The translations under genes were made by a program, and so were the position numbers. A DNA stretch of 64,000 nt from Eubacteriales bacterium (GTDB lineage: Bacteria > Bacillota > Clostridia > Oscillospirales > CAG-272): NCBI GenBank assembly GCA_045659905.1, contig JAZRCT010000040.1, positions 2,003-66,002 of the forward strand. Direction: 5' to 3'. Shown in pieces: positions 3,001 through 50,884 of the stretch. Every line of letters starts with the position of its first letter. Position 1 is the stretch's first letter. Under the pieces are notes generated by a model. That model was not told where the DNA came from and did no database searches. It saw only the letters and a program-made list of their open reading frames with translations.

Positions 3001-3539
3001 TCGGGATAGTCGTCGTTCGGGTCGTTGTTGGCAAGTCCCGTATTAGTAATCGGGTCGTAGTAGCTGGGAGGAGTCCAAGTACCCACCGATTTAGCGATAT
3101 TGCTGTTATTTTTAGGGTAAATCTCGGTAGCGCCTACCGCCACCTTGATTACCGCATTCATTTTGTCGGTATTACCAAGCGCCTTGGCTACGCCAAGCTC
3201 AGCGCCCGAGCGTGTCAAGGTCTGTCCGAAGCCAAAGGTAACGGGGGTAAAGCCCGAGACGTCATACTGAAATTGCTCGTGCTCACCAAAGAAAAGCACG
3301 TTATCAAAGCCCGTGTAATATCTGTCGTCGTTATCCTTGTCGGGAAATTTGTGCGTGGTTTCGTCCTGAGTGCCGTAGCCTACGGCGTTTGACTGTCCGC
3401 CGATAAGCCAGACGTCGATAGTACCCAAGCTTCCCGCCGCTTGCTGCGCATTGCCGATAAGCGCAAAGCTAAAGGCGAATGCAGACAAAAGCAACGAAAC
3501 GAGAAGTAACGCACCCGTAATTTTTCTTTTAACGTTCAT
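1..3539 (-). CDS. large secreted protein: signal peptide + SASA/SGNH-type carbohydrate (sialate O-acetyl-like) esterase domain, then at least 3 copies of a ~300-aa repeat module; 3' end lies outside the window
   Basis: ATG at 3539-3537 preceded by GGAG. Own translation gives MNVKRKITGALLLVSLLLSAFAFSFALIGNAQQAAGSLGTIDVWLIGGQSNAVGYG (signal peptide + GQSN esterase motif). The frame was re-checked by hand at 360-120 (DDYGFIPAYYSDKDLYPFAFFKNGEF...GYGGSVAYLRKSIDNPVALKPFGINGVFTIDLGGNTLSRNSAYI) and is still open and protein-like. It is absent from the ORF track only because no stop lies inside the window. The plus-strand ORFs 766-3392 are antisense shadows. Confidence 0.85.
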   Translation of the reverse strand, partial: MNVKRKITGALLLVSLLLSAFAFSFALIGNAQQAAGSLGTIDVWLIGGQSNAVGYGTQDETTHKFPDKDNDDRYYTGFDNVLFFGEHEQFQYDVSGFTPVTFGFGQTLTRSGAELGVAKALGNTDKMNAVIKVAVGATEIYPKNNSNIAKSVGTWTPPSYYDPITNTGLANNDPNDDYPDVTEDVRNSYVTGDNSYKGEYIVGNMYRQFISVVRKGVEDLREMGYTPVLRGMWWMQGEAEAGTKVFADCYDELLECLIKDVREEMTEIFGSDQSKMPFSAGNIYRNKEKDEQDAYIYSQPTYLHNINLAQVAVSQRLDNVYYLHNGDDEEWDTDKTDDVVPKVDGYTDLTEAGGLGYYAQIDGWHFNAWTQQYFGEKFVEFSLSANSEHTVSAVGGDFTLENGGIHKKDASVTVSFTPDDGFKIDSVTMSVGGAAATSVTLSDGSYTFTMPDANVTFNVSSSCIGDGISTDYGTISAQYASKKAYPFALFKNGSFVSGYARWNQVLAALPVVESTDAYTILLRQDYKTFELDTNVTSVPSALGGTVTLDLGGNTMTRGSKYIFDIFHNSSSTYTTTVNIKNGTLADINTSPIIGLNYGSSSANAAAKTYNFNFDGVTFVDLSARRTTGLVFDCWENGRGTANTGVTVNAVFDDCVFDSSRANAPIAIGLSGRGDTASDKTKVTLTVNGGNFIMNEGYTLIASSSEDTVKIGTGAEGKYPTVTLPAGVAPKYDSFSNSEGELYALNANGGVTADGNTVYSFEEAGVVTRFGIVSEEYQGAEYKFVVFKKDGTNVGYTTWVAAITAAKEAVNGSSDKWAGVYLRSSYSTDDNDMVAQQLCHINGTVDIDLGGNTLSKGTRTVFDIFSHTGSGGFATVINVSGGTIVGSPAIALDHGSGLTGEKTFKMTFERVNFSCDSASNPLALTIWTQASNPSGSTKLELTYNGCEFDMTNATEKAVFNASDVKDGRKSINVSITVNGGAIKNMSTAAIATLDSGDSIAFGKYNGSYTSFSIATGTAPADIKTNFNNAEDKNGRVSLLKTVTADGGFDKYLFTASEKADDYGFIPAYYSDKDLYPFAFFKNGEFKDARANLTGYEDGYGGSVAYLRKSIDNPVALKPFGINGVFTIDLGGNTLSRNSAYIFDVVANATDIYDTTLVIKNGTLNSKQKWAIALNQTALTE

Positions 3540-3562
3540 AAGTATACACTCCTTATTAACTA

Positions 3563-3581
3563 TTCACTCTTATCTCCAGAG
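3563..3581. repeat. 19-nt direct repeat TTCACTCTTATCTCCAGAG, copy 1 (copy 2 at 3725-3743); each copy abuts a short hairpin
   Basis: Exact 19/19 match read in the sequence. Copy 1 sits ~25 nt upstream (minus-strand sense) of the start codon of the 1-3539 gene. Confidence 0.8.
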
Positions 3582-3586
3582 ATATG

Positions 3587-3645
3587 CACGGCAGAGCCGT
3601 GATGCCATTCACTCTTACGAGTGATTATATACGCCTATGGCGTAT
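3587..3645. repeat. three consecutive short hairpins (CACGGC-aga-GCCGTG / TCACTC-ttac-GAGTGA / ATACGCC-tat-GGCGTAT) separated by short linkers
   Basis: Perfect 6-7 bp inverted repeats read directly. Same architecture as the hairpin-linker arrays elsewhere in the window. Confidence 0.7.
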
Positions 3646-3724
3646 GATGAATGGGGGACGAATGGCTAGCGAAAAAGCCGAGTCCATTTTTATTATACAA
3701 CTTTCACCTCTTCACTTTTCACTC

Positions 3725-3743
3725 TTCACTCTTATCTCCAGAG
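3725..3743. repeat. 19-nt direct repeat TTCACTCTTATCTCCAGAG, copy 2
   Basis: Exact match to 3563-3581. It overlaps the left arm of the 12-bp-stem hairpin at 3738-3764. Confidence 0.8.
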
Positions 3744-3764
3744 CATCTGTGTCAGATGCTCTGG
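3738..3764. other. perfect 12-bp-stem hairpin CCAGAGCATCTG-tgt-CAGATGCTCTGG overlapping the stop codon of the 42-aa ORF
   Basis: Inverted repeat read directly. No T-run follows on either strand, so it is not a canonical terminator. Confidence 0.75.
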
Positions 3765-3880
3765 TTCAAGTCCCACACGCCATCGGTATTTTCTACGGCG
3801 GTGGTTTCAGTTCCCGAGGTGGTAAGTACGTCCTGATTGATTTCCAAAGCTTCAAGAATAGGCTGCTCGTATTTTTTCAT
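3752..3880 (-). CDS. candidate small protein (42 aa, acidic): MKKYEQPILEALEINQDVLTTSGTETTAVENTDGVWDLNQSI
   Basis: ATG at 3880 with AGAAAGGAA 9 nt upstream; TGA at 3754-3752. It lies between the two giant genes on the same strand. It is below the ORF-track length cut-off and I recognise no homolog. Confidence 0.35.
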   Translation of the reverse strand: MKKYEQPILEALEINQDVLTTSGTETTAVENTDGVWDLNQSI

Positions 3881-4000
3881 ATCACTAGTTCCTTTCTTTT
3901 TTATATTTTTGCTCTCTGCCATGGGATTGCCGTTATGCTCACGGCAGAGAGTGTTTATCTGATTTGCAATTCTTTTATTTCACCTGATGAGCCGCATCGC

Positions 4001-12319: not shown

Positions 12320-12527
12320 ATACATTCCTCCTACGTATAAAATATTTACCATAAAAGTTATATCATATAAAATTCAAGAGAGGAATAGCTAAACGGCATT
12401 TTTTCAAATATTTTTTGTTTCAAATACACAATTTTCACAAAATTAGATAAGCTTTATTGTTGATATTGCCTATATATCAATATAACCCTTTGAAAAAGCG
12501 GAAACTTCACCAATAAAAAAGGGGGCT

Positions 12528-12611
12528 GTCTCATTAAGAATTCAATAAAATCAATGCAAAATCGGAGAAAATGCGGCAAGAAATAAAGATTTAGCGAATT
12601 CTTAATGAGAC
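12528..12611. repeat. 16-bp perfect inverted repeat GTCTCATTAAGAATTC / GAATTCTTAATGAGAC enclosing 52 nt
   Basis: Read directly (12528-12543 and 12596-12611). It lies in the intergenic region upstream of the giant gene. Confidence 0.75.
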
Positions 12612-12781
12612 TCTGAACCTTGGGGTGAACGAATTTAGGTAGGAAAGCGGCGTTTGCGACCGAAGGCGTACGAGGGTACGGCGAGAGTTCAGCAAACGAC
12701 GGTAGAATAAAAAACAAATAAAAAAGAGGAAAAACAAGAGTTTTTCAACCTTAATTTCCTCAAAATTACGCTTATTATCGG

Positions 12782-12824
12782 GAGGGGTACTGTGTTTCTT
12801 TTACAATACCCCTCGTTTTTTATT
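12782..12824 (+). terminator. orphan intrinsic-terminator-like hairpin (GAGGGGTA-17nt-TACCCCTC + GTTTTTTATT) with no upstream plus-strand gene
   Basis: 8-bp perfect stem followed by a T-run on the plus strand. The nearest genes are both on the minus strand. Confidence 0.5.
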
Positions 12825-12885
12825 CGGTTATGCCTAAATGCGAAAGCCTCTTGGGGCCCGAAAGCATTTTTGGGTGTATTTTTTA

Positions 12886-13000
12886 TTGCCACGTGGCAAT
12901 ATCACTCTTTGCGTGAGCAAAGAATATCACTGTCACCTAAGCGACAATATCACCCTCGCCGTGGTGAGGATATCACTGCCACCAAAGGTGGCTATATCCC
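12886..13000. repeat. hairpin-linker array A: 5 units of [5-7 bp-stem hairpin] + AATATCACT-like linker
   Basis: Units: TTGCCAcgTGGCAA-tATCACT; CTTTGCgtgaGCAAAG-AATATCACT; GTCACctaaGCGAC-AATATCACC; CCTCGCCgtGGTGAGG-ATATCACT; GCCACCaaaGGTGGC-TATATCCC. The array starts at the TAG stop of the 12992-13699 gene. Confidence 0.8.
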
Positions 13001-13699
13001 AATAAGGTGAGAATAGTGCGAAAACTCGCCGCCGACAAGCTCTTTCCCGTCGAAATACACGGTAGTAACCGAAGCGTTGTAAGGGAAGTCCACCTCCTGC
13101 GTCACACGCTCGGGGGCAACGCCGATAAGCCTTGCGTAAAAGGCTCTGATAACTGCTGCGTGAGCGGTAATCAGCACGCACTCGCCGATATGTTTTTTTG
13201 CTATCGAAAGCAGCGCATTGTGAAATCTCTCGGCTGCGGCGCTTACAGGCTCTCCATCGGGGGGTGTGAAAATGCCGAAATTCTGCTTCCAGCCTACGGT
13301 AAATTCCTCGCCGTATATCCTCTCTATATCCTCGATTTTGGAATTTTCCCACTTTCCGATATAGATTTCCCGAAGCTCACGCATCGGCACGATTTCTATA
13401 CCACGGTACTCCGCATTCGGACGGGCGGTATCATAGGCTCTTATCAAATCGCTTGAATATATAGCCGAAATCGGCTCGCCCTTGAGGAAATCCGCCGTCG
13501 CCTGCGCCTGGACGTGTCCTCTTTCGGAAAGTCCTAAGTCGGTATGACCGAGAAAGGCGTGCTCTGCATTGGCAATGCTTTCTCCGTGACGCACCACGAG
13601 CAGTCGAGTGCTATATCTTTCGTCTACGAAAAGCGGTGTCATATCACGCTGAATACCGCTCTCGCTATCCTTTATTTCTTCGGTAATTATCTCTTTCAT
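12992..13699 (-). CDS. histidine phosphatase family protein (phosphoglycerate-mutase-like)
   Basis: 235-aa ORF with the LLVVRHGESIANAEHAFLGHTDLGLSERG (RHG catalytic) motif; GGAG before the ATG. Confidence 0.85.
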   Translation of the reverse strand: MKEIITEEIKDSESGIQRDMTPLFVDERYSTRLLVVRHGESIANAEHAFLGHTDLGLSERGHVQAQATADFLKGEPISAIYSSDLIRAYDTARPNAEYRGIEIVPMRELREIYIGKWENSKIEDIERIYGEEFTVGWKQNFGIFTPPDGEPVSAAAERFHNALLSIAKKHIGECVLITAHAAVIRAFYARLIGVAPERVTQEVDFPYNASVTTVYFDGKELVGGEFSHYSHLIGI

Positions 13700-14119
13700 A
13701 AAGCTCCATTCTGATTGCCGATATAATAGGCATCTTATAAGCAGTCGTTGTATTTTTCGGGAATTGAGCCGCCCCGCCTCGGCATAAATGCGGCTAAAAA
13801 GGATAAGTCAATCCTCAAAGCGGTGCTGCCGACACGCACTTTCAAAAAAGCTTCTCAAAGTCGAACGGCGGCAAAAATTCGTAACTTTTCGTAATTTCAC
13901 GAGTGCATATCCTTGTGAATTTTTATTCACCGCCAATAAGGACACTTTTTCGAAAAATCTCCCGTCAAATAAAAGCGTGTTTTGCAAGTTCAAAGCACAA
14001 GAGCGGTAGCCGTGCCCCTTGCCGAATCAAAAGCAAAATCCCAAAGCTCCACCTCGCTTTCGGTAAGGGTCTCCACAAGCGCCGACTTGTACCAACGAAT
14101 GACGAGCAAGCGCCCCAAA

Positions 14120-14376
14120 GAATCCGCCCGATAGTTCGAGATAGCAAATCCGTAACCAAAAAAGGATAAATCCACCCGATTCAACTCCAAATCCGTCGGC
14201 TTTGTCTCAAAATCCGTCCACTTTAATAATAAATCCGTCCCGTTCAGACGAAAATCCACCCAATTTAATGGCAAATACACCCGCTTTAGTGAAAGTACGC
14301 CAGCCTTAGCTAAAAGTACGCACGCTTTAGCAATAAATACGCAGTCTGATAAGAAAAATCCCGCAATAAAGCACGG
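14120..14376. repeat. 21-bp tandem array I (~12 degenerate units, consensus AAATCC(R)(Y)CC-N11)
   Basis: Unit starts at 14146, 14168, 14189, 14210, 14231, 14252, 14273, 14292, 14313, 14335 and 14356 (spacings 22,21,21,21,21,21,19,21,22,21). Confidence 0.8.
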
Positions 14377-15010
14377 ACAACCCCACAATAAACTACAAAT
14401 ATTTAAATCAAAAGCAACAACACGGATATTATACCACCAAACCGAAGCAATGTCAATAAACGCAAAGCAGCGCCGGCGTCAGCGTCTGTGTCAGAAGTTC
14501 CGCACCAAAAATAAGGCGCAATTCAAAGCGGTCATCGCCGCATCTCGCAAGAGGAAAGGTCGGGGCGAGACGAAGCAAAATCAATTCGGAATCCAAAGCA
14601 TAAATCAACAGCCAAATCAAATAAAAAGGCTAAGTAATCCACCACGCAAAATAGAGCATTTTTTCTTTCCGTTTTTCTAAAATCAGCGCCATAAAATTCT
14701 GAATTTTCCGCATATCACAACCTCAATTATACAAAACTTTTTACCGCATATTTTCGTAATATTTTGGAATTTTTCGCAAAAATCAGAAAAATTCTTCAAA
14801 AAACGCTCAAAAAAACAAGGAGCAGCTAAAACCGTGACAATTTTTACCATATTTAACCATATTTTCCCATTTTCGTAGCAAAATGTATATCAGAGCCAAA
14901 AAATCCGCCCACCCCGAAGCTTGGCGCATGCACGGTCAAAATCTAAGCTGCCACAGCGCCTGCGACATTTTTTTGCACTGCTCCGTAGGTCTTTTCAGCG
15001 CTCTGTTGAA

Positions 15011-15181
15011 TTTTTTAAGAGTTTTATTGGCTTTTCGAGTGATAAATCAGCTTTTTAGCATTTTTTCGTTTCCTGAGGCGTTTTTTCGGCTTTTTGTTCG
15101 TTTTTTCATTAAAATAAAGCTTTTTTGCTGTATTTTCTCGCCGTAGTGTGGCGTTTTCGCCCATATTTTTTCTATTTTGTT
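15011..15181. repeat. helically phased T-tracts (T4-T6 every ~10-11 bp); predicted intrinsically curved DNA
   Basis: T-tract starts at 15011, 15022, 15032, 15052, 15061, 15069, 15081, 15091, 15101, 15121, 15133, 15154, 15166 and 15175. Confidence 0.7.
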
Positions 15182-15364
15182 TGAAAAATGCGTTCTCACG
15201 ATACAAATATCGTCTCAAGGCTATCTCCAAGGCAATTTACGGTCGCAAAAAGCCGCTTCAAAGCCGCAAAGAGCCCCTTAATTGTCAAAAACGCCGCTAC
15301 CCGAACTTTTATATCAATCAAGAATCTCCTGCCGATGCCAAGCGGTTTTTTAGCGTATCCTTAT

Positions 15365-15482
15365 AAAAAATTGCAAAATCACCTCAAAAAGCGCCTGTTT
15401 TTTCCTTGTAAAGCAAAAAATCTTTAAAAAATCCCCTAAAATTCGCAAAAAAATCACCCAAAATCCGCAAAATTGCGCCAAA
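15365..15482. repeat. helically phased A-tracts (A3-A7 every ~10-11 bp) ~90 bp upstream of parS-1
   Basis: A-tract starts at 15365, 15375, 15386, 15415, 15426, 15438, 15447, 15460, 15469 and 15480. Confidence 0.7.
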
Positions 15483-15570
15483 TCGGGTGCTAAATCAGCC
15501 GAGCCTTAGGCGCTTAAGCCTTAATTGCATATTCAAGGGAAATTCAAAGGGCAGACTGTTTATCAGGCAA

Positions 15571-15586
15571 TGTTTCACGTGAAACA
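15571..15586. promoter_or_regulatory. parS: parS site 1 (TGTTTCACGTGAAACA), ParB/Spo0J binding site
   Basis: Perfect 16-bp palindrome matching the Firmicute parS consensus tGTTNCACGTGAAACa. It extends to the 20-bp palindrome AATGTTTCACGTGAAACATT. Confidence 0.9.
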
Positions 15587-15793
15587 TTAAAATCCAGGCA
15601 AAAACAGCGAAAAAATATATTTCCCCGCCAAATCCAGGTTGTTTCAAGTGAATTGTCCCCTTATTTACCTTAAAACCGAATTGAGCGAGATTTTGCCGCA
15701 AAAATATGGGGGATTCGTGAGCTTACGGCTAAAAAGGGAACTCAAAAGCTTTTACGGCAAGAATGTAGCAGAATTCAATTGATAAAATCCAAT

Positions 15794-15809
15794 TGTTTCA
15801 CGTGAAACA
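15794..15809. promoter_or_regulatory. parS: parS site 2 (TGTTTCACGTGAAACA)
   Basis: Identical 16-mer 223 bp from site 1, flanked by imperfectly symmetric AAATC(C)AAT arms. A degenerate relative (TGTTTCAAGTGAATTG, 4 mismatches) lies at 15640-15655. Confidence 0.9.
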
Positions 15810-15973
15810 TTGATTTCCCCATCACGATTCGCCCGGAAACAAGAAAAGCCACAAAGCATAAATAAAAAATCGCCAAAAACGCAAAATTTCACAAGCTTCA
15901 CCCAAAATCACCTCAAAGATTACTCCAAAACCGCTTCGAAACACCTATAAAATGCTATAAACCCCAAGCTTAT

Positions 15974-16105
15974 ACTCGGATTGTAACACAGATTGCAACT
16001 CAGATTAAAACTCATATCAAAGCTCGTATTAAAACTCATATTAAAGTCAGTATTAGAACTCCGATTAAAGCTTCAACAAAGACTGCTTCAATTCCGTCCA
16101 ATTCA
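15974..16105. repeat. 12-bp tandem array (~10 degenerate units, consensus ACTCRKATTAAA)
   Basis: actcggattgta/acacagattgca/actcagattaaa/actcatatcaaa/gctcgtattaaa/actcatattaaa/gtcagtattaga/actccgattaaa/... read directly. Confidence 0.8.
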
Positions 16106-16420
16106 GCAAAAACGCCGAAATTTGTACAAAAACCAGTTAAAATACGCCTTGCAGTAAAAATTATCGCATTAAATTGCAAAAAATCGTAGCGTTTAACCGC
16201 AATTTCCGCAAAACGTCTCAGCTCACCGCTCGCAATTTCTCGGAAGTCAAGCCCAAGCCCGCTAAAACTCAGACCAAGGGTTTGCAGCACAGCAAAAGAA
16301 CACAGCCCTGCCGCATACGAACTCAATCACAAACGCCAACTCGAGAAAAATCGCACTCAAAGCTCAAAATCCAACCCATCATAACAATTTCGATATAACC
16401 AAAGTCAGAGTCGTTTTGCT

Positions 16421-16660
16421 AAAAAGCTCAATTCAGAAACGTTTTAGCAAAAAATCTTGATTCAAAGGCGTTTCGGCAAAAAGCTCAATTCAGAGGCACT
16501 TCAACGTGGCAAAAGATTAACGAAAGGGCATTTTGGTTTAAAAATTTCGCTTCAACGGCAATTTCGCTTCGAAAACCTATTCAGAAGAAGGATACTGCTT
16601 AAAAACTTGTCAAAAAATCATTTTTCCAGCAAAAGCCCTCAGTATAACCGGAATTTCACC
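16421..16660. repeat. ~30-bp tandem array (8 degenerate units, each opening with A4-A6)
   Basis: Unit starts at 16421, 16449, 16478, 16511, 16540, 16572, 16601 and 16631, e.g. AAAAAGCTCAATTCAGAAACGTTTTAGC / AAAAAGCTCAATTCAGAGGCACTTCAACGTGGC. Confidence 0.75.
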
Positions 16661-16693
16661 GTCGGCTCGCATTTCTTCGTGCCGTTCTTTGTG

Positions 16694-16860
16694 CTTAGGG
16701 TAGTTTTCTTGCTGCTTAAGCTAGGATTATGCGCTTAAGGTGGGGTCCTCGACGCTTAAGCCGGCTTTCTTGGCGCTTAAGACGGGTTTCTCGGCGCTTA
16801 AGGCAGGGTTATCGGTGATTAAGCAGCTTTCCGAAGGGCGCTTCGCCTTTTAATTGTTTG
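16694..16860. repeat. 21-bp tandem array II (8 units built on GCGCTTAAG)
   Basis: CTTAAG-like cores at 16694, 16715, 16734, 16755, 16776, 16797, 16818 and 16841 (spacings 21,19,21,21,21,21,23). Confidence 0.8.
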
Positions 16861-17065
16861 GCAGCCGTTTCCGCCTCATTCCGTCATAAAATCCCCGACA
16901 GACAACTTATTTTGACGCATTTCGACATAAATTTGGTATTAGTCTGCGCTCTCTTTTAGTTTTCCATTTTTTACCATAAGTTATCAAAAATATAAAAATT
17001 CCAAGCTATGACACGCAAAAGTAGGTCTATTTCTGGATTTTTTGAAAAAAACGTCGATTTACCGA

Positions 17066-17094
17066 TTGACTTTTTCCTTTTATTACTATATAAT
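17066..17094 (+). promoter_or_regulatory. sigma-A-type promoter of parA-parB (TTGACT-17-TATAAT)
   Basis: -35 TTGACT at 17066-17071, a 17-nt spacer, and -10 TATAAT at 17089-17094, ~110 nt upstream of the parA ATG. Confidence 0.7.
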
Positions 17095-17201
17095 CATTAT
17101 ATAACATATATATTAATCATTTAATAATGCATAAGTGTGGTTTTTGCACGATATTTCATTTGCATAGCTATCACTTACAAAAGGAGTATATAACAAAGCT
17201 T

Positions 17202-17975
17202 ATGGGCAAAATCGTTTCTTTCTCCAACCAAAAGGGCGGAGTCGGCAAGACGACCTCTTGCGTGAACATATCGGCACAGATTGCCAACAAGGGCAAAAAG
17301 GTTCTTATGATTGATATGGATCCTCAGGGCAACGCCACGAGCGGACTTGGACTTCCGAAGTCTAAAATCAAGAAGACCATTTACGACGTCGTTATCGGCA
17401 AATGCTCTATGGAGGATGCTATAATAAAGACGAGGTTTAAGAATCTTTCGGTAGTACCCGCTACGATAAACCTTGCAGGCGCAGAGCTTGAGCTTCACGA
17501 CCTCGAGGAGGCTGCGGACGAGAATCTCAATTTCTTTAATAAGGAAATAAGCTCGGTTAAGGACGATTACGACTACATATTTATAGATTGCCCTCCCTCG
17601 CTCGGTATGCTTACCGTAAAGGCGCTTTCGGCGTCTGACGGCGTAGTAATTCCTATGCAATGCGAGTTCTATTCGCTTGAGGGTATGTCGCAGCTTTTCA
17701 ACACGATAAAGCGCATCCATCAGCTTTTCAATCCCTCGCTTCGTGTAGTGGGAATTCTTCTTACTATGTATAACGGCAGACTTACGCTTACAAATCAGGT
17801 AGTAGCAGAGCTTAGAAAATATTATCAGGACAAGCTCTTTAAGGTGCCGATTTCAAGGACGGTCAGAATCTCGGAAGCCCCCGGCTACGGTGAGCCTATT
17901 TGCTATCACGACCCTTACGGCAAGGGCTCGCTTGAATACGCAGCGGTAGCAAAGGAGCTTATGACGAGAATTTAA
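17202..17975 (+). CDS. parA: chromosome partitioning ATPase ParA/Soj
   Basis: MGKIVSFSNQKGGVGKTT (deviant Walker A). AAGGAG lies upstream of the ATG at 17202; the ORF-track start at 17127 adds an implausible N-terminus. Confidence 0.93.
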   Translation: MGKIVSFSNQKGGVGKTTSCVNISAQIANKGKKVLMIDMDPQGNATSGLGLPKSKIKKTIYDVVIGKCSMEDAIIKTRFKNLSVVPATINLAGAELELHDLEEAADENLNFFNKEISSVKDDYDYIFIDCPPSLGMLTVKALSASDGVVIPMQCEFYSLEGMSQLFNTIKRIHQLFNPSLRVVGILLTMYNGRLTLTNQVVAELRKYYQDKLFKVPISRTVRISEAPGYGEPICYHDPYGKGSLEYAAVAKELMTRI

Positions 17976-18045
17976 GCCGTAGGCAAAAGCCCCCGAACAT
18001 CTTACAAATACTCGCCCTTGCGGCGGCAGAAACGGAGAACTAAAA

Positions 18046-18935
18046 TGCCAAGAAAGAACAGAGGCCTCGGCAGAGGCATTGACGCTATATATCTTGAAAA
18101 TGCGCTCGACAATATGGGCGGCACAGGCGAAAACACTATCACTATGCTGAATCTCGGAATGGTTGACCCCAAGAGCGACCAGCCGAGAAAATATTTCGAT
18201 AAGGAAGCGCTTGAGGCACTCTCCGAGTCCATTAAGCTTAACGGACTTCTTCAGCCTATTATCGTACGTGAATACGCCGACGACAGATATCAGATAATCG
18301 CAGGCGAGAGAAGATTCAGAGCCTCAAAGCTTGCGGGACTCGAAGAAATCCCCGCAGTTATTCTCGACAGAGACGACAGAGAAGCCGCAGAGCTTTCACT
18401 TATCGAGAATATCCAAAGAGAGGACTTGAATCCCGTAGAGGAGGCGCTTGCATACAGAGCGCTTATCGAAAACCACTCGCTCACTCAGGAGGAGCTTTCG
18501 GCAAGAATAGGCAAGAGCAGAAGCGCAATTGCCAACTCTATGCGTCTTATCGACCTTCCCGACGAGGTGCTTGAAATGGTTGCTAACCGAGATATCTCGG
18601 CAGGTCACGCAAGAGGACTTCTCGGTCTTAAGGACAGAGCCAATATGCTCCCCCTCGCCAATAAAATAGTAGAGTACGACCTTTCGGTAAGACAGCTTGA
18701 GGAGGAGGTAAAGCGAATCAACCGCCAAAAGCCTCCCGTAGAAAACGAAGTAGAGCTTCCTCTCGTTGATTACTTTAGAGAGATGGAGCTTAAAATTCAA
18801 TCGCATCTTGGCAGAGTAGTAAAGATTCAGGGCAAGGGCAAGAAGAAGTCCGTAACCCTCTTTTACGAGGACAACGAGGACCTCGACGAGCTTCTTAAGA
18901 CGATATGCGGCAAGGATTTCCTTGACGAGGTATAA
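18046..18935 (+). CDS. parB: chromosome partitioning protein ParB/Spo0J
   Basis: MPRKNRGLGRGIDAIY..., the IAGERRFRASKLAGL box and an HTH region. It lies directly downstream of parA; GGAG precedes the ATG at 18046. Confidence 0.93.
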
Positions 18936-19872: not shown

Positions 19873-20613
19873 ATGGCTTCAAGCAAAAAAGTATTTATAT
19901 ATATGCTGACCGCCGAGGAAGGCTCAATTACCGACGCCGAGCTTGATATGCTCTCCGCAGCTCTGCCAGAGGCGCTTTCTGCAAGGTGCGAGGCGGCAAA
20001 CGCCAAGGAGCTAAGGCACGACCGAATTCTCGCCTACACCGCTCTTATGTACGCGCTCTACGAGGCAGGTCACGACCCTGACAATATCGGATTTTCATTC
20101 TCGGAGCTTGGAAAGCCAAGTATACCCAATTCGGACTACAACGTATCAATGTCGCACGCAGGCGGAATCGGCATTGCGGCAATTTCAGGTGACCTTGACC
20201 TCGGAATTGATATCGAGCTTCTTGACGAAAAAACCGCTACCACTCTCCAGCGTGTCTGCAAGCGCTTCGTACCCGATTTTTATCCCGAGCCAAGCTCTCT
20301 TGCCGACTGCATTTTTGACGACGAGCCGAGCTTCACCCCAGACCTTGAAGTGAAGCTTTGCGAGCTTATACCGAAAAGGCAGGAAGGAAGGCTCTATCTT
20401 GAAAAATCAACCGCACGCTGCTGTACGGGGCTTGAATCCTCAAAGGCTGAAAAATGGACCTGCGCCGAGGCGCTCCTCAAGCTTGACGGCAGAGGCTTCA
20501 CCGCCCTCCCACAGCTTGCTGCGATAAGAGAAAGCGCCCACCTTTACTCAACGGCAGTAAAGCCTCACGGCAAAAGCTCCCTCCTCGCCGTTTCTCTCGC
20601 AACGAAACAATAA
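19873..20613 (+). CDS. 4'-phosphopantetheinyl transferase superfamily protein (Sfp-like)
   Basis: SMSHAGG...LGIDIE and WTCAEALLKLDG (W/F-x-x-K/A-E-A-x-x-K) motifs. The start is coupled to the upstream stop (TAATTATG). Confidence 0.7.
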   Translation: MASSKKVFIYMLTAEEGSITDAELDMLSAALPEALSARCEAANAKELRHDRILAYTALMYALYEAGHDPDNIGFSFSELGKPSIPNSDYNVSMSHAGGIGIAAISGDLDLGIDIELLDEKTATTLQRVCKRFVPDFYPEPSSLADCIFDDEPSFTPDLEVKLCELIPKRQEGRLYLEKSTARCCTGLESSKAEKWTCAEALLKLDGRGFTALPQLAAIRESAHLYSTAVKPHGKSSLLAVSLATKQ

Positions 20614-20680: not shown

Positions 20681-20714
20681 ACACCCCGAAAGCATTTTGG
20701 GGTGTGTTTTTTTA
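20681..20714 (+). terminator. intrinsic terminator ACACCCC-11nt-GGGGTGT + GTTTTTTTA
   Basis: 7-bp GC-rich stem with a T7 run, 68 nt after the stop of the 19873-20613 gene. Confidence 0.8.
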
Positions 20715-20881
20715 TCCAATGCGTCAAGCTTTGGACTTCATCCAAGCGTAAGTCTTGGACTTAATCCATCGAAGATGGACTTCACCCGAGCGTAAGCGAG
20801 GATATCACTGCCACATTAGTGGCAATATCACTCTTTGCGGGAGCAAAGAATATCACTCCTCGCCGTGGCGAGGAATTTCCC
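20715..20881. repeat. hairpin-linker array B: 3 units [TCCAxx hairpin]+CTTMA followed by 4 units [hairpin]+AATATCACT
   Basis: TCCAA-11-TTGGA-CTTCA; TCCAAGcgtaagtCTTGGA-CTTAA; TCCATCgaaGATGGA-CTTCA; (degenerate)-ATATCACT; GCCACattaGTGGC-AATATCACT; CTTTGCgggaGCAAAG-AATATCACT; CCTCGCCgtGGCGAGG-AATTTCCC. Confidence 0.8.
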
Positions 20882-20957
20882 ATTTCGCCCTGAAAGTATT
20901 TTAAGCAGTTATTCGCTTTTATTTACATATGAGTAAATAATTGTTTACTCCTCAAGA

Positions 20958-36126: not shown

Positions 36127-37905
36127 ATGACAATAGTACTTGATGTAATTTTGCCCTTGCTTTGCGGACTGTCGTTATTCCTTTTCGGAATGGACGTAAT
36201 GGGCGATGCGCTGAAAAAGAGCGCAGGCAACGGACTTAAGACAATCCTTGGCAAAATGACCTCGAATCCCGTGAAGGGATTTCTTTTAGGACTTGGCGTT
36301 ACCGCCATTATTCAGTCCTCGTCGGCTACCACCGTTATGGTCGTCGGCTTCGTTAACTCCGGCACTATGACGCTTGTGCAGTCGGTTGGAGTTATTATGG
36401 GCGCTAACGTAGGTACGGCGGTCACCGCCTGGCTTACCGCTCTTTCGGGCATAGAGGGCGGCGGACAGAGCGCTTTCAATTACCTCGACCTGCTTAAGAC
36501 CGACTCCTGGATGCCTATACTTGCGGTAATAGGTATTTGCCTCATTCTTTTTGTAAAGAGAGGAAAGAAGCGTGATGTAGGCTTCATTCTCGTGGGCTTT
36601 GCCGTGCTTATGGTAGGTATGTCGCTTATGTCGGATTCGGTAAAGGGAATCGACCAGGACGCCCTTGGCTCTATTCTTACCACCTTTAAGAATCCCATAC
36701 TCGGCGTGCTTGCAGGTATGATACTTACAGCGATAGTTCAGTCCTCGAGCGCATCTATCGGTATTCTTCAGGCGCTCTCGGTTACGGGCGCTATCGACTT
36801 CGGTATGGCAATTCCGATTGTTCTCGGACAGAATATAGGTACCTGTATTACCGCAATGCTTTCCGCAATAGGCGCAAGCCGCAACGGTAAGCGTGCCGCA
36901 ATAGTGCATCTTTATTTCAATATTATCGGCGTTATATTCTGGCTTTCTACCTTCTATATAGTAAATGCGTTTGCACACTTCCCATTCCTTGAGATGCCTA
37001 TCAATATGTGGGGTATAGCAGCCGTTCACACGATATTCAAGATACTCTCCGTAGCTCTTATTTCTCCCTTCTACCGTCAGCTTGAGCGTCTTGCAAGGCT
37101 TACTATCAGAGAGAAGAAGGACGAGGGTGAGACCGTCAATATGCTTGACGAGCGTCTTTTCGCTACTCCCGCCGTAGCGGCAAGCAGCGCAACCACCGCT
37201 ACCTACAAGATGGCAGAGCTTGCCTGCGATTCTATAAAGCGCGCTATGACGCTGCTTGACGAATTTGACCCGAAGCTTGCCGACGAGATAAGGGATATCG
37301 AGGGCAAGGTTGATACCTACGAGGATACTCTCGGAAGCTATCTTGTAAAGCTTTCGAGTGTTGATATGACTGAGCGTGACTCTTTGCAGATTACGAAGCT
37401 TCTTCACATTATCGGCGACCTTGAGAGAATTTCCGACCACGCTGTAAATATCGTAGAGAGCGCAGAGGAAATGAAGGACAAGAAGCTTTCCTTCTCCGAC
37501 GAGGCAAAGCGTGAGCTTAAGGTTATGAGAGCCGCTATTTCGGATATCGTTACTATGACATATCAGGGCTTTATTTCAAACGACGTAAAATGTGTCCTCG
37601 AGGTAGACCCGCTTGAGGAGGTCGTTGACAGAATCCGTGATACAATCAAGAAAAATCACGTCAACAGACTCAAAAAGAGCGAATGCACCATAGAGCACGG
37701 CTTCGTTTTATCCGACCTGCTTACCAACTTTGAGCGAGTTTCTGACCACTGCTCGAATATTGCGGGCTGTGTATTTGAAATATCGAGCTTCGATGCGCTC
37801 GACCTTCACAAATACTCGCAGCAGCACAAGAGCGGCGACGAGGCGTTTGACGCTAAGGTAAATGAATTTACCGAAAAGTATAAGCTTGCGTTTGAGGAAG
37901 CGTAA
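36127..37905 (+). CDS. Na/Pi cotransporter family protein with C-terminal PhoU-like domains
   Basis: 592 aa; duplicated QSSSA(T/S) motifs (IIQSSSATTVMVVGF / IVQSSSASIGILQAL) and a PhoU-like helical C-terminus (ISDHAVNI, VSDHCSNI). Confidence 0.88.
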   Translation: MTIVLDVILPLLCGLSLFLFGMDVMGDALKKSAGNGLKTILGKMTSNPVKGFLLGLGVTAIIQSSSATTVMVVGFVNSGTMTLVQSVGVIMGANVGTAVTAWLTALSGIEGGGQSAFNYLDLLKTDSWMPILAVIGICLILFVKRGKKRDVGFILVGFAVLMVGMSLMSDSVKGIDQDALGSILTTFKNPILGVLAGMILTAIVQSSSASIGILQALSVTGAIDFGMAIPIVLGQNIGTCITAMLSAIGASRNGKRAAIVHLYFNIIGVIFWLSTFYIVNAFAHFPFLEMPINMWGIAAVHTIFKILSVALISPFYRQLERLARLTIREKKDEGETVNMLDERLFATPAVAASSATTATYKMAELACDSIKRAMTLLDEFDPKLADEIRDIEGKVDTYEDTLGSYLVKLSSVDMTERDSLQITKLLHIIGDLERISDHAVNIVESAEEMKDKKLSFSDEAKRELKVMRAAISDIVTMTYQGFISNDVKCVLEVDPLEEVVDRIRDTIKKNHVNRLKKSECTIEHGFVLSDLLTNFERVSDHCSNIAGCVFEISSFDALDLHKYSQQHKSGDEAFDAKVNEFTEKYKLAFEEA

Positions 37906-37906
37906 A

Positions 37907-38107
37907 GCGTGATACGCTTAGCAGAGTATCACGCTAACTCTATTCGCCTCCGGCGAGTTATATTGCTACGCAGTGATATTCGGATTATGACGAGTGATAT
38001 TTGCTCCGCAAGCTTAGGGCGAATAGAATATAACTGAAGCCACAAGGCTTCAATATCACTGTCGCTGAGCGACAATATAACTCTTTGCGTTAGCAAAGAA
38101 TATCACT
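37907..38107. repeat. hairpin-linker array C: linker motif present in both orientations (GTGATA x3 then TATCAC/TATAAC x5)
   Basis: GCGTGATAC-10-GTATCACGC hairpin (37907-37934); AGTGATATT at 37972 and 37993; 9-bp inverted repeat CTATTCGCC/GGCGAATAG (37940/38018); then AATATAACT-GAAGCCacaaGGCTTC-AATATCACT-GTCGCtgaGCGAC-AATATAACT-CTTTGCgttaGCAAAG-AATATCACT. Confidence 0.8.
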
Positions 38108-38117
38108 TTATACTAAC

Positions 38118-38191
38118 AAAAAAAGAGAGATCATTTCGGTGCACAAGTCCATTTTTAAGGACTCGTGAATACCGATTTGCTCTCTCTTTTT
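38118..38191. terminator. long imperfect bidirectional terminator hairpin (A-run ... AGAGAGA / TCTCTCT ... T-run)
   Basis: AAAAAAAGAGAGAtcaTTTCGGTgCACaaGTCC-atttttaa-GGACtcGTGaatACCGAtttgcTCTCTCTTTTT, between the convergent 36127-37905 (+) gene and ilvA (-). Confidence 0.75.
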
Positions 38192-38314
38192 GCTTATAAT
38201 AAGCGTTTAGGCTTAGCCCGAGTGCATTGACTTGTCGAAAGACTTTAACGCACTGCGCTTAATGTTCAAATTCTCTGATTTTGGCGTAATGGCAAAGGCG
38301 CACGGATTTTTTAA

Positions 38315-39511
38315 TTAAACAACTATTTTAAAGCCTGCGCTGACCAGTGCGTTCTTTATTTGCTCTATGTGCTCGAAGTTTCTCGTCTCCATAATAATTC
38401 TTAAGTAACAGCCGTTTACGTCCGAGCCCTCGTTTGCCCTTTCGTGATGCACCGAGGTGACGTTGCCGCCGAGTTCGGATATAATTCTCGATACGTCGGT
38501 AAGCTGTCCCGGCTTATCTACAAGCTCTACTGTGAGCTGATAGTTTCTTCCCGACATAAGAAGACCGCGCTTTATTACCCTTGAGAGAATAGTAACGTCG
38601 ATATTTCCGCCTGAGAGCAGACATACCGTCTTTTTGCCCTCAAGGTCGAGCTTGCCGAACATAGCTGCCGCTACCGCTACCGCTCCCGCACCCTCGGTGA
38701 CGAGCTTGTGCTTTTCCATAAGGGCGAGAATTGCCGCTGAAATCTCGTCGTCGGTGACGGTGACTATCTCGTCTACGTACTTTTCGCAAATTTCATAAGT
38801 AAGGTCGCCGGGGCGTTTTACCGCAATGCCGTCTGCAATGGTTCTTACCGAAGGAAGCTCCTCAATTTTGTGGTCCTCTACCGAATTTTTCATAGAGGGC
38901 GCACCGCTTGCCTGAACGCCGTATACCTTTACTCTCGGGTTTATGCTCTTTATAGTATAAGCAACGCCCGAAATAAGTCCGCCGCCGCCGATAGGCACTA
39001 TAATGGCGTCGAGGTCGGGAAGCTGGTCGGCGATTTCAAGCGCTATCGTGCCCTGACCTGCAATTACGTCGGGGTCGTTAAAGGGGTGTATAAAGGTGTA
39101 GCCGCATTCGTCACGAAGCGAGATAGCCTTATTGTAGGCGTCATCGTAAACGCCCTTGACAAGACAAACCTCAGCGCCGTAGCTCTTGGTAGCCTCTATT
39201 TTGGAAATGGGCGCACCGTCGGGCAGACAGATTACCGCTTTTATGCCGTTCTTCTGTGCGGCAAGCGCTACGCCCTGTGCGTGATTTCCCGCAGAGCAGG
39301 CGATTACTCCGCGCTTTTTCTCCTCGGGGCTAAGCTTCGACATTTTGTAGTAAGAGCCTCTTACCTTAAACGAGCCCGTGGTCTGAAGATTCTCGGTCTT
39401 AAGATAAAGCTCAAGTCCCTCTTTAAGCTTGGGAGCGTAAATTATATCGGTCTTGCGGACTACGTCCTTCAGCACGTAGCTCGCTCTGTATACGTTATCA
39501 AGTGTAAGCAT
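38315..39511 (-). CDS. ilvA: threonine ammonia-lyase (threonine dehydratase) with a C-terminal ACT-like domain
   Basis: 398 aa; PLP-lysine motif TGSFKVRGSYYKM and the GGGGLISG loop. Confidence 0.92.
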   Translation of the reverse strand: MLTLDNVYRASYVLKDVVRKTDIIYAPKLKEGLELYLKTENLQTTGSFKVRGSYYKMSKLSPEEKKRGVIACSAGNHAQGVALAAQKNGIKAVICLPDGAPISKIEATKSYGAEVCLVKGVYDDAYNKAISLRDECGYTFIHPFNDPDVIAGQGTIALEIADQLPDLDAIIVPIGGGGLISGVAYTIKSINPRVKVYGVQASGAPSMKNSVEDHKIEELPSVRTIADGIAVKRPGDLTYEICEKYVDEIVTVTDDEISAAILALMEKHKLVTEGAGAVAVAAAMFGKLDLEGKKTVCLLSGGNIDVTILSRVIKRGLLMSGRNYQLTVELVDKPGQLTDVSRIISELGGNVTSVHHERANEGSDVNGCYLRIIMETRNFEHIEQIKNALVSAGFKIVV

Positions 39512-41859: not shown

Positions 41860-41988
41860 TAAGCCCTAGCCTTGCCGGCTTGGCGCTTTACTTAAGCTTT
41901 CGTTTGGCGATTTACACGCTTCACTTAACTTTAGCTTGGCGCTTCGCTTAGCTTTAGCTCCGTGCTTTTCTTAGCTTAGCGCTTCACC
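41860..41988. repeat. degenerate GGCGCTT/CTTAGC-rich low-complexity repeats filling a 170-bp spacer inside the leu operon
   Basis: tggcgctttacttaagc.../tggcgatttacacgcttcac.../ttggcgcttcgcttagctttagc... read directly. It resembles the GCGCTTAAG array at 16694-16860. Confidence 0.6.
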
Positions 41989-50653: not shown

Positions 50654-50702
50654 GCAAGGGTAAACCGACGGAAAAAAGAGCAGACTCGGCGTGATGTCCT
50701 TA

Positions 50703-50842
50703 ACGGACAAAGCACGCGGTTAAATCCGTCTTCGACGGGTGAAATCCACCTATGGTGGATGAAATCGCTTTCGCAATGAAATCCTGCTTCGCAGGGTTAA
50801 GATAGACAAGCTTGATTTCATCGTTGCCTGCAACGATTTCAT
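50703..50842. repeat. hairpin-linker array D with ATGAAAT linker (4 forward units, then 2 ATTTCAT inverted)
   Basis: CCGTCttcGACGG-GTGAAAT; CCACCtatGGTGG-ATGAAAT; CGCTTTCGCA-ATGAAAT; CCTGCttcGCAGG-GTTAAGAT; ...ATTTCAT-CGTTGCctGCAACG-ATTTCAT. It lies between the ilvE terminator and the leuA promoter. Confidence 0.75.
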
Positions 50843-50851
50843 TGAACTAAC

Positions 50852-50884
50852 AAAAAAGAGCAGACGTACAAGATTTCGTCTTGC
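50852..50884 (-). terminator. intrinsic terminator after ilvE
   Basis: The minus strand reads GC(a)AGACG-aaatcttgta-CGTCTGC followed by TCTTTTTT. Confidence 0.6.

Follow-up and report, generated by a model that had tools for sequence, protein, structure and literature searches.

The DNA analyzed here is a 64-kb window (64,000 nucleotides, positions 2,003 to 66,002 of contig JAZRCT010000040.1) from a Eubacteriales bacterium of the Oscillospirales (assembly GCA_045659905.1). Its minus strand encodes a histidine phosphatase (His_Phos_1 family), and immediately beyond the stop codon of this gene lies a row of five small hairpins, here referred to as array A, in which self-complementary hairpins of differing sequence alternate with the conserved plus-strand linker ATATCAC at a period of ~23 bp (Table 1). 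This anatomy was given in a preliminary description of the locus and stands, as does the observation that the array abuts the phosphatase stop codon: the final base of the last hairpin, H5, at 12992, is also where CTA, the complement of the TAG stop, begins. The five hairpin-linker units counted earlier were confirmed for the hairpins but not for the linkers, of which there are four. What was taken for the fifth, TATATCC (12993-12999), is reverse-complementary to the final phosphatase codons GGG ATA TAG and is not counted as a linker; the C-terminal GGGATATAG/A of the protein is kept in orthologues, including those whose array linker differs. The single G:T position described earlier was found in H4; a second imperfect plus-strand stem, H3, contains an A:C in addition, which reads G:U on the minus strand.

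The window contains 21 copies of the heptamer ATATCAC, compared with an expectation of 4.8 +/- 2.0, and none of 100 shuffles reached 21. Five sites in the window carry chains of at least two hairpin units set between linkers of the form A-N-W-T-[C/A]-A-Y, whereas 30 shuffles yielded no such chain. Predicted fold energies of both strands were far below those of shuffled sequences (z -4.3 to -7.0), with -63.1 kcal/mol (z -5.1) for the minus strand of array A. Tandem intrinsic terminators were considered as the identity of the arrays and rejected, as no U-tract follows the hairpins directly and the tails read GAUAUU or AAUAUCAC. A terminator scan of the regions around array A and a related locus, element C, flagged three minus-strand units with mixed tails (ATATTCTT, TATATTCT and TATATTGT) and none of the plus-strand units.

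Match of the arrays to Gut-1 RNA

Read on the minus strand, array A is a compact stack of hairpins with GUGAUAU joiners, the form of Gut-1 RNA (Rfam RF01706). In an E-value scan with the Rfam covariance model, which has a curated gathering score of 50 bits, array A was matched over the full model (1-77) at 12894-12978 (-) with 49.3 bits (E 4.8e-9), 0.7 below the threshold. The window contains four Gut-1-type loci in all, the others being array B (20797-20883 (-), 40.3 bits), the left part of element C (37935-38005 (+), 36.2 bits) and element D (50717-50787 (+), 50.5 bits), the last of which exceeds the gathering score. In 18 related loci, 13 matches were at or above this score, some of them to ATATCAC and ATTTCAT arrays read on the reverse strand, and sister copies of the ATATCAC family in other genomes passed it at 51-59 bits. 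The U.G pair at Gut-1 columns 60/77 was present in 56/56 aligned relatives. Two rows of the Gut-1 seed alignment (BAAZ01000095.1 and BAAZ01025322.1) carry the same GUGAUAU arm, the same GGCGAAUAUA centre and AUAUCAC arrays; the 2010 seed alignment thus already holds copies of the GUGAUAU type followed by AUAUCAC arrays, and also the arrangement of tRNA, terminator and element described below.

Gut-1 was reported as an orphan among non-coding RNAs, "detected only in human gut sequences", with a motif that spans three hairpins only (Weinberg et al., 2010; Genome Biol 11:R31, PMC2864571). Array A shares with it at least three consecutive hairpins joined by GUGA(A/U)AU, stems extended by A-U pairs of the joiner and by U.G pairs, and a source in gut Clostridia, and differs in its score below the curated threshold and in exceeding the three-hairpin motif. 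We assign array A with high confidence to the Gut-1 family, as a copy that had been described from its opposite strand. It thus belongs to a known orphan family and is not a new element class, even though the score falls just short of the curated threshold; in spirit, this is the match to a known repeat family that the preliminary description itself named as telling against its reading. The text of Weinberg et al. (2010) and its Gut-1 note make no mention of a leading hairpin, a long-range helix or an inverted open arm, nor of other linker families, strand-polar loops or placement at stop codons and tRNA genes. No later publications on Gut-1 were found in the literature library searched.

Hairpin selection, strand polarity and family architecture

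The stems have been selected as hairpins, in line with the covariation anticipated in the preliminary description. Standard pairs occupied 96.4% of stem cells compared with 76.5% in column shuffles, and the covariation score was 0.485 versus 0.122 when shuffled, with 0/500 shuffles as high and slid controls at 0.10 or less. Compensatory changes were observed in 21 of the 30 stem pairs, and at orthologous sites hairpins evolved in place by such changes. A long-range helix between TnTATTCGC and GCGAATAnA is predicted in addition, one position of which is A-U in 23, U-A in 18 and C-G in 13 sequences, without a break; because the three states follow three subfamilies of the leading hairpin, they represent few independent events.

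To describe the basic unit, 256 distinct units flanked by ATATCAC-type linkers were read on the linker strand. Perfect stems of 5-8 bp were present in 221 of them, the outer pair was T-A in 184 and the loop-closing pair C-G in ~212, while the 5' stem arms took 160 different sequences. The unit consists of a G-free 7-nt linker (ATATCAC or its relatives ATTTCAY, ACTTCAY and AATTCAT) followed by a hairpin of 5-8 bp, whose outer pair is T-A, whose loop-closing pair is C-G and whose loop is GNA or GNRA. The loops are strongly strand-biased: GAA (36), GCA (17), GTA (15), GCAA (14) and GTAA (12) prevail on the linker strand, where AAA and GAAA also occur, whereas their complements are nearly absent (TTC 2, TGC 1, TAC 3, and none for the GCAA and GTAA tetraloops). 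On the linker strand, here called open, a C.A clash ends the extension of the stem and the linkers are left single-stranded; on the opposite, compact strand, which is the form of the Gut-1 model, A-U, U.G and U-A pairs lengthen the stems and only 3-nt joiners remain.

A genome scan with the pattern ATATCAC-N12-20-ATATCAC-N12-20-ATATCAC, using one genome per species, returned at least 120 loci, and hairpin arrays were present at 93 of the 120 listed. The carriers among the loci listed are nearly all metagenome-assembled genomes from the gut, assigned to Oscillospiraceae, Acutalibacteraceae, Ruminococcus, Christensenellaceae and unclassified Clostridia, and the arrays in the window are accordingly not the product of local segmental duplication. 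A phage origin was rejected, as the same scan of viral contigs gave hairpin arrays in only 2 of the 120 matches listed.

Fifty-six full copies could be aligned well. Read in the same direction as the upstream gene, they consist of a long leading hairpin (L0), a Gut-1 arm of four small hairpins joined by GTkmTAT, GTGATAT or GTGrTAT, a centre (GTTTnnnn-GGCGAATAnA) and an open right arm of three hairpins, with ATATCAC before each and a closing ATATCAC, hence four linkers. Left-arm loops read TTC, TAC and TTAC on the plus strand, the same bias on the other strand, so that the full element amounts to two arrays pointing outward from the centre. Several linker dialects coexist in the same genomes, namely ATTTCAY (Gut-1 proper), ACTTCAY (in the window at 20731-20796), AATTCAT, AAATCAT, ATATCAT, GCTTCAT and YATGTAAT, and TCAY is common to all but the last. 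Pairing between left and right linkers was considered, as GTGATAT-ATATCAC and, in element D, RTGAAAT-ATTTCAT are complementary. However, right linkers are fixed and left ones are not (GTTATAT, GTGGTAT), and since there is no left/right covariation across the family and two loci (L069 and L120) combine arms with unlike, non-complementary linkers, such pairing was ruled out as a general feature. L120 also contains a 24-unit ATATCAC array (2340-2950), formed by ~eightfold tandem amplification of a three-hairpin block, and arrays can therefore expand quickly; a GTGAAGT-linked arm precedes this array.

Genomic placement and turnover

Canonical copies are oriented with the upstream gene. The upstream open reading frame (ORF) was co-directional in 29 cases and opposed in 9, although orthologous loci are counted more than once and these ratios overstate independence. 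Twelve further copies directly follow a tRNA gene with a perfect bidirectional terminator, and all twelve are co-directional (L011, L015, L024, L030, L033, L038, L046, L048, L053, L054, L068 and L110). They make up ~20% of copies, far above the share of tRNAs among all genes, and five of them follow tRNA-Gln (anticodon TTG in four, CTG in one). In about 25 loci the upstream stop codon precedes the element centre by 120-145 nt and hence the leading hairpin by 10-25 nt. By flanking gene direction, elements fell into the classes ++ (16), +- (16), -- (7) and -+ (5), with a depletion of divergent promoter regions. No orientation bias was found for downstream genes, none relative to the replication strand as judged by GC skew (24 versus 23), and no recurrent protein cluster was found next to the arrays.

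Other identities for parts of the element were also rejected. The longest words shared by the two flanks were A-rich and barely above the shuffled control, arguing against target-site duplication, and a clear repeat (14 nt) was seen only at element D. The centre reads TAnAAT, with no acceptable -35 in the consensus by eye, and a promoter scan found no plus-strand promoter in the region of element C (37800-38350). The linker ATATCAC did not match, by eye, the consensus sequences of a DnaA box, IHF site or parS.

Within the window, element C is a full-plan copy, whereas arrays A and B are array-only versions beside a common terminator-like hairpin: the hairpin CCCGAAAGCATTTTTGGG next to array A has a near-identical second copy, CACCCCGAAAGCATTTTGGGGTG, at array B, and another such copy flanks the orthologous locus L241 (see below). 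The right part of array B lies between convergent genes, 19873-20613 (+) and an RNase J gene (-). As described earlier, the stem types CTTTGC, GCCAC, CCTCGCC and GTCRC of array A recur with different loops in arrays B (20802-20874) and C (38028-38106), and the order of the units is permuted among the three. Element C follows a Na/Pi-cotransporter-PhoU gene; its centre and CTCTATTCGCC, where the arm begins, are complementary and are predicted to pair as the long-range helix, and its right-arm linkers read, in order, ATATAAC, ATATCAC, ATATAAC and ATATCAC. Kissing between its left loops (TCC, TAC, TCC) and right loops (ACAA, TGA, GTTA) was rejected, as none are complementary by eye. Element D has the architecture of element C with another linker pair, lies in antisense orientation between two genes of the minus strand and has a terminator at its end. 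On either side of it, at 50672-50685 and 50852-50865, stands one copy of AAAAAAGAGCAGAC, a perfect direct repeat of 14 nt, and the element looks like an insertion with duplication; the right copy of the repeat consists of an A-run and the 5' arm of a bidirectional terminator.

Comparison of phosphatase orthologues showed that the array is dispensable and turning over at a site that stays attractive. At locus L241 (94% protein identity) the same array is present minus exactly one 23-nt unit, with all loops changed and most stems kept, and because a strong sense-strand terminator comes after it, the array is placed within the 3' untranslated region (UTR). The orthologue L243 (83%) is followed by a full, tandemly duplicated element of the RTGAATT/AATTCAT dialect. 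Among more distant orthologues, L245 (66%) lacks the hairpin array after the stop codon, L246 (62%) has a plain terminator only, and L247 (62%) has a degraded element further downstream. In L245, a non-hairpin tandem repeat, GAGCGTAACA, lies downstream of the phosphatase gene (2390-2500) in place of the hairpin array. The 600 nt downstream of the L241 phosphatase gene is a hot spot of arrays, and arrays with three further linker types (ATATCAT, ATGAAGC and the complement GCTTCAT) occur at 3400-3900 of that locus.

Several other features of the window were observed in passing. A 530-nt spacer (12353-12885) separates the phosphatase gene from a Big_5-domain gene, both on the minus strand; it contains plus-strand terminator-like hairpins at 12782-12825 and 12856-12885, a weak plus-strand promoter match lies nearby at 12345-12373, and the spacer may hold an unannotated plus-strand transcript. 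At 3560-3745, four consecutive perfect hairpins (TATCTCCAGAGATA, CACGGCAGAGCCGTG, TCACTCTTACGAGTGA and ATACGCCTATGGCGTAT) with unlike spacers are followed by a TTCACTC tandem repeat, and may represent a degenerate array in a different dialect. The spacer of two minus-strand genes contains, at 41917-41977, 2.7 tandem copies of the 23-nt sequence CGCTTCACTTAGCTTTAGCTCCG, which does not form hairpins. The region 13700-17100 (~3.4 kb) has no long ORF, is A/C-rich on the plus strand and contains five different short tandem-repeat blocks with periods of 11-28, together with two perfect copies of a parS-type palindrome, TGTTTCACGTGAAACA, at 15571 and 15794. Genes for ParA (17127-17975) and ParB (18018-18935) follow closely downstream, and the region resembles a partition or origin-proximal one.

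Table 1. Positions of array A, the adjoining phosphatase gene and the other Gut-1-type loci in the 64-kb window.
Feature	Position	Strand	Description
Terminator-like hairpin	12856..12885	+	CCCGAAAGCATTTTTGGG then T-run; adjoins array A
Array A	12886..12992	-	Minus is the phosphatase sense strand; five hairpins and four ATATCAC linkers on + strand
Hairpin H1	12886-12899	+	TTGCCAC/GTGGCAA
Hairpin H2	12906-12923	+	T-CTTTGC-GTGA-GCAAAG-A
Hairpin H3	12931-12946	+	T-GTCAC-CTAA-GCGAC-A
Hairpin H4	12954-12969	+	CCTCGCC-GT-GGTGAGG
Hairpin H5	12977-12992	+	T-GCCACC-AAA-GGTGGC
Array A linkers	12899, 12924, 12947, 12970	+	Exact ATATCAC
Histidine phosphatase gene	12992..13699	-	His_Phos_1; TAG stop at 12992-12994 abuts H5
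Terminator-like hairpin	20683..20716	+	CACCCCGAAAGCATTTTGGGGTG then T7; after + gene 19873-20613, before array B
Array B, left	20731..20796	+	Three hairpins; linkers ACTTCAT / ACTTAAT / ACTTCAC
Array B, right	20802..20874	+	ATATCAC x3; hairpins GCCAC, CTTTGC, CCTCGCC
Element C, leading hairpin L0	37906..37935	+	AGCGTGATAC...GTATCACGCT; directly after TAA stop
Element C, left arm and centre	37936..38027	+	GTTATAT/GTGATAT joiners, small hairpins, then GGCGAATAGA
Element C, right (open) arm	38028..38106	+	Hairpins GAAGCC, GTCGC, CTTTGC
Large terminator-like hairpin	~38115-38195		3' of element C
Element D	50686..50851	+	Left arm (G/A)TGAAAT x4; right arm ATTTCAT x2

An RNA-level role and its alternatives

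The reading that we favor, at a probability of about 0.5, is that array A is a modular, multi-copy and dispensable hairpin-linker repeat of transcription-unit 3' ends in gut Oscillospirales and other Clostridia, with a role at the RNA level. Because of the co-orientation with upstream genes, the fixed distance to the stop codon, the placement of the L241 array in a 3' UTR and the lack of replication bias, we consider it somewhat better than an even bet that Gut-1 elements act on RNA. Array A would then be a compact-only version, its transcript making up the 107 nt that immediately follow the phosphatase stop codon, with the message running straight from the coding region into five compact hairpins. 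By analogy with repetitive extragenic palindromic (REP) sequences and the bacterial interspersed mosaic elements (BIMEs) built from them, the element would act in cis and the compact stack would define and protect the 3' end of the upstream message. Where an open arm is present, it would display repeated single-stranded AAUAUCACU sites on read-through transcripts to a putative RNA-binding factor, for example a termination or decay factor, and the arrays would evolve at the linkers, where whole units would be gained, lost or amplified in tandem. This specific role, 3'-end definition and protection combined with factor loading, is put forward tentatively. Among the three roles considered in the preliminary description, that of a 3' UTR RNA is the best supported, although not in its original form: with the phosphatase gene on the minus strand, its mRNA would carry GUGAUAU joiners and not AAUAUCACU sites.

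Several observations weigh against this reading. The leading hairpin is itself a good terminator in at least 21/57 canonical copies and a plus-strand terminator-like hairpin precedes array A and array B each, so that much of the element is perhaps reached only by read-through. The GNA/GNRA loops are antisense to the gene in array A and in all left arms, being mirrored between arms, and a single sense RNA therefore does not explain the loop bias; such loops, when closed by C-G, mark stable mini-hairpins of DNA just as well. The orientation bias of ~80% is not absolute, with counts inflated by orthologous loci, and multi-copy density applies to this window only, the flanks in other genomes containing ~1 extra array per 195 kb. 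We also know of no factor that binds the linker.

Some of these points would suit a mobile element that acts as single-stranded DNA, in the manner of REPs or of REPINs (REP doublets forming hairpins), which we regard as unlikely but worth taking seriously. In that case hairpin and ATATCAC would be recognized together on one DNA strand by an HUH enzyme (of the REP-associated tyrosine transposase (RAYT) or IS200 type) or a similar enzyme that copies, shuffles and deletes units, and effects on RNA would be secondary. The orientation, however, is independent of the replication strand and follows the upstream gene, target-site duplication is not general, the hairpins differ between units as those of REPs do not, and their compensatory evolution occurred in place at orthologous sites. 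Consistent with such an enzyme are the strand-polar units with a conserved single-stranded motif beside the hairpin, the arms of inverse polarity, the extragenic sites at gene 3' ends or between convergent genes, the permuted unit order of arrays A, B and C, the precise one-unit indel and family turnover at one site and the perfect 14-nt repeat around element D, as well as the GNA triloops with C-G closure, which are classic stable DNA mini-hairpins. No recurrent neighboring protein was found, and a tblastn search with two TnpA queries gave no Y1 transposase match in the 120 loci and the window (~0.8 Mb), a weak test. The REP/BIME-like proposal of the preliminary description is thus retained for position, dispensability and modularity, but its Y1-transposase part finds no support in the loci searched.

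The likeness to REP, BIME and REPIN elements is considerable, comprising short extragenic hairpin repeats at gene 3' ends and between convergent genes, inverted arrangements, covarying stems and dispensability at individual loci. REPs stabilize upstream mRNA and attenuate transcription. In REPs, however, it is the palindrome that is conserved, next to a GTAG-type tetranucleotide, whereas the arrays here conserve the linker, the heptamer ATATCAC or a relative sharing TCAY, and vary the palindrome; the hosts also differ (REPs being known from Proteobacteria), and no RAYT-like gene was seen in the 120 loci and the window by the same weak test. CRISPR arrays likewise alternate short conserved elements with variable ones and change by whole units, but the conserved part here is an unstructured 7 nt and the variable part a self-complementary hairpin of 13-19 nt, too short and palindromic to serve as a guide and of types that recur between arrays. 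CRISPR loci have repeats of 21-48 nt, non-palindromic spacers of about that length and cas genes or a leader; no cas genes were found near the arrays.

That Gut-1 is instead a stand-alone small RNA acting in trans, such as a sponge whose linkers titrate an RNA-binding protein, appears quite improbable. It was classed as a non-coding RNA gene by Rfam and Weinberg et al. (2010; PMC2864571), and element D, antisense between two minus-strand genes with a terminator at its end, would fit this view. The RNAs RsmY/Z, CsrB and CrcZ titrate proteins by means of a single-stranded motif repeated between stable stem-loops, and the arrays resemble them in this respect. Those RNAs, however, come from few dedicated genes with their own promoters; the arrays here are many, with several copies per 64 kb after unrelated genes, and are dispensable at a given locus. 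Their coupling to stop codons and tRNA terminators is tight, and there is no room for a promoter between the element and the terminator or stop codon upstream of it.

Slippage that expands tandem repeats and palindromes without function, in neutral intergenic DNA at 3' ends, could account for the loss of arrays in more distant orthologues, the tandem amplifications and the low copy density in other genomes. We nevertheless give such a tolerated by-product little chance: the same 7-nt linker and grammar are kept across several bacterial families, 96% of cells stay paired through compensatory changes, the biases in loops and closing pairs are extreme and the long-range complementary pair (TnTATTCGCC/GGCGAATAnA) takes three pair types without a break. 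Least credible, to the point that we give it almost no weight, is a protein-binding array on double-stranded DNA (iterons, or transcription-factor or partition sites two helical turns apart), the third role considered earlier. Although the ~23 bp period, the conserved heptamer and the nearby parAB and parS would suit it, binding sites would select neither complementary stems nor the strand bias of the loops, the heptamer is unlike the DnaA-box and parS consensus, and copies are dispersed after many unrelated genes.

A further reading, which is speculative and probably not correct, would treat the arrays as polar, two-faced boundary elements of transcription units. A transcript entering from either side would first gain a compact protective stack and then an open arm, whose multivalent linkers (core UCAY) would load a conserved termination or decay factor. 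The arrays would grow in a CRISPR-like manner, the linker being duplicated with each inserted hairpin unit, and this growth would explain uniform linkers beside heterogeneous hairpins. The mirrored arms, the optimization of loops on the open strand, the placement at stop codons and terminators, the enrichment between convergent genes and the unit indels fit such a boundary element.

Rfam has carried Gut-1 since 2010 as a "small RNA" orphan, known from gut metagenomes only. Our analysis adds its full architecture, linker dialects, strand polarity, placement at stop codons and tRNA genes and unit-wise turnover, which may be of use to workers on bacterial repeats and on non-coding RNA. It suggests that Gut-1 is better viewed as a Clostridial counterpart of REP/BIME elements, a modular repeat with a defined grammar, arms of opposite polarity, linker dialects and a strong preference for sites just after stop codons and tRNA terminators. 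If the arrays are merely tolerated repeats, the value of this view would lie mainly in avoiding misannotation. If it is correct, the annotation of these abundant gut bacteria would change, as many "sRNA" matches would be repeat units on either strand; it would further point to a factor that reads a 7-nt single-stranded motif, and the units would provide nature's own compact model for minimal hairpins of very high stability.

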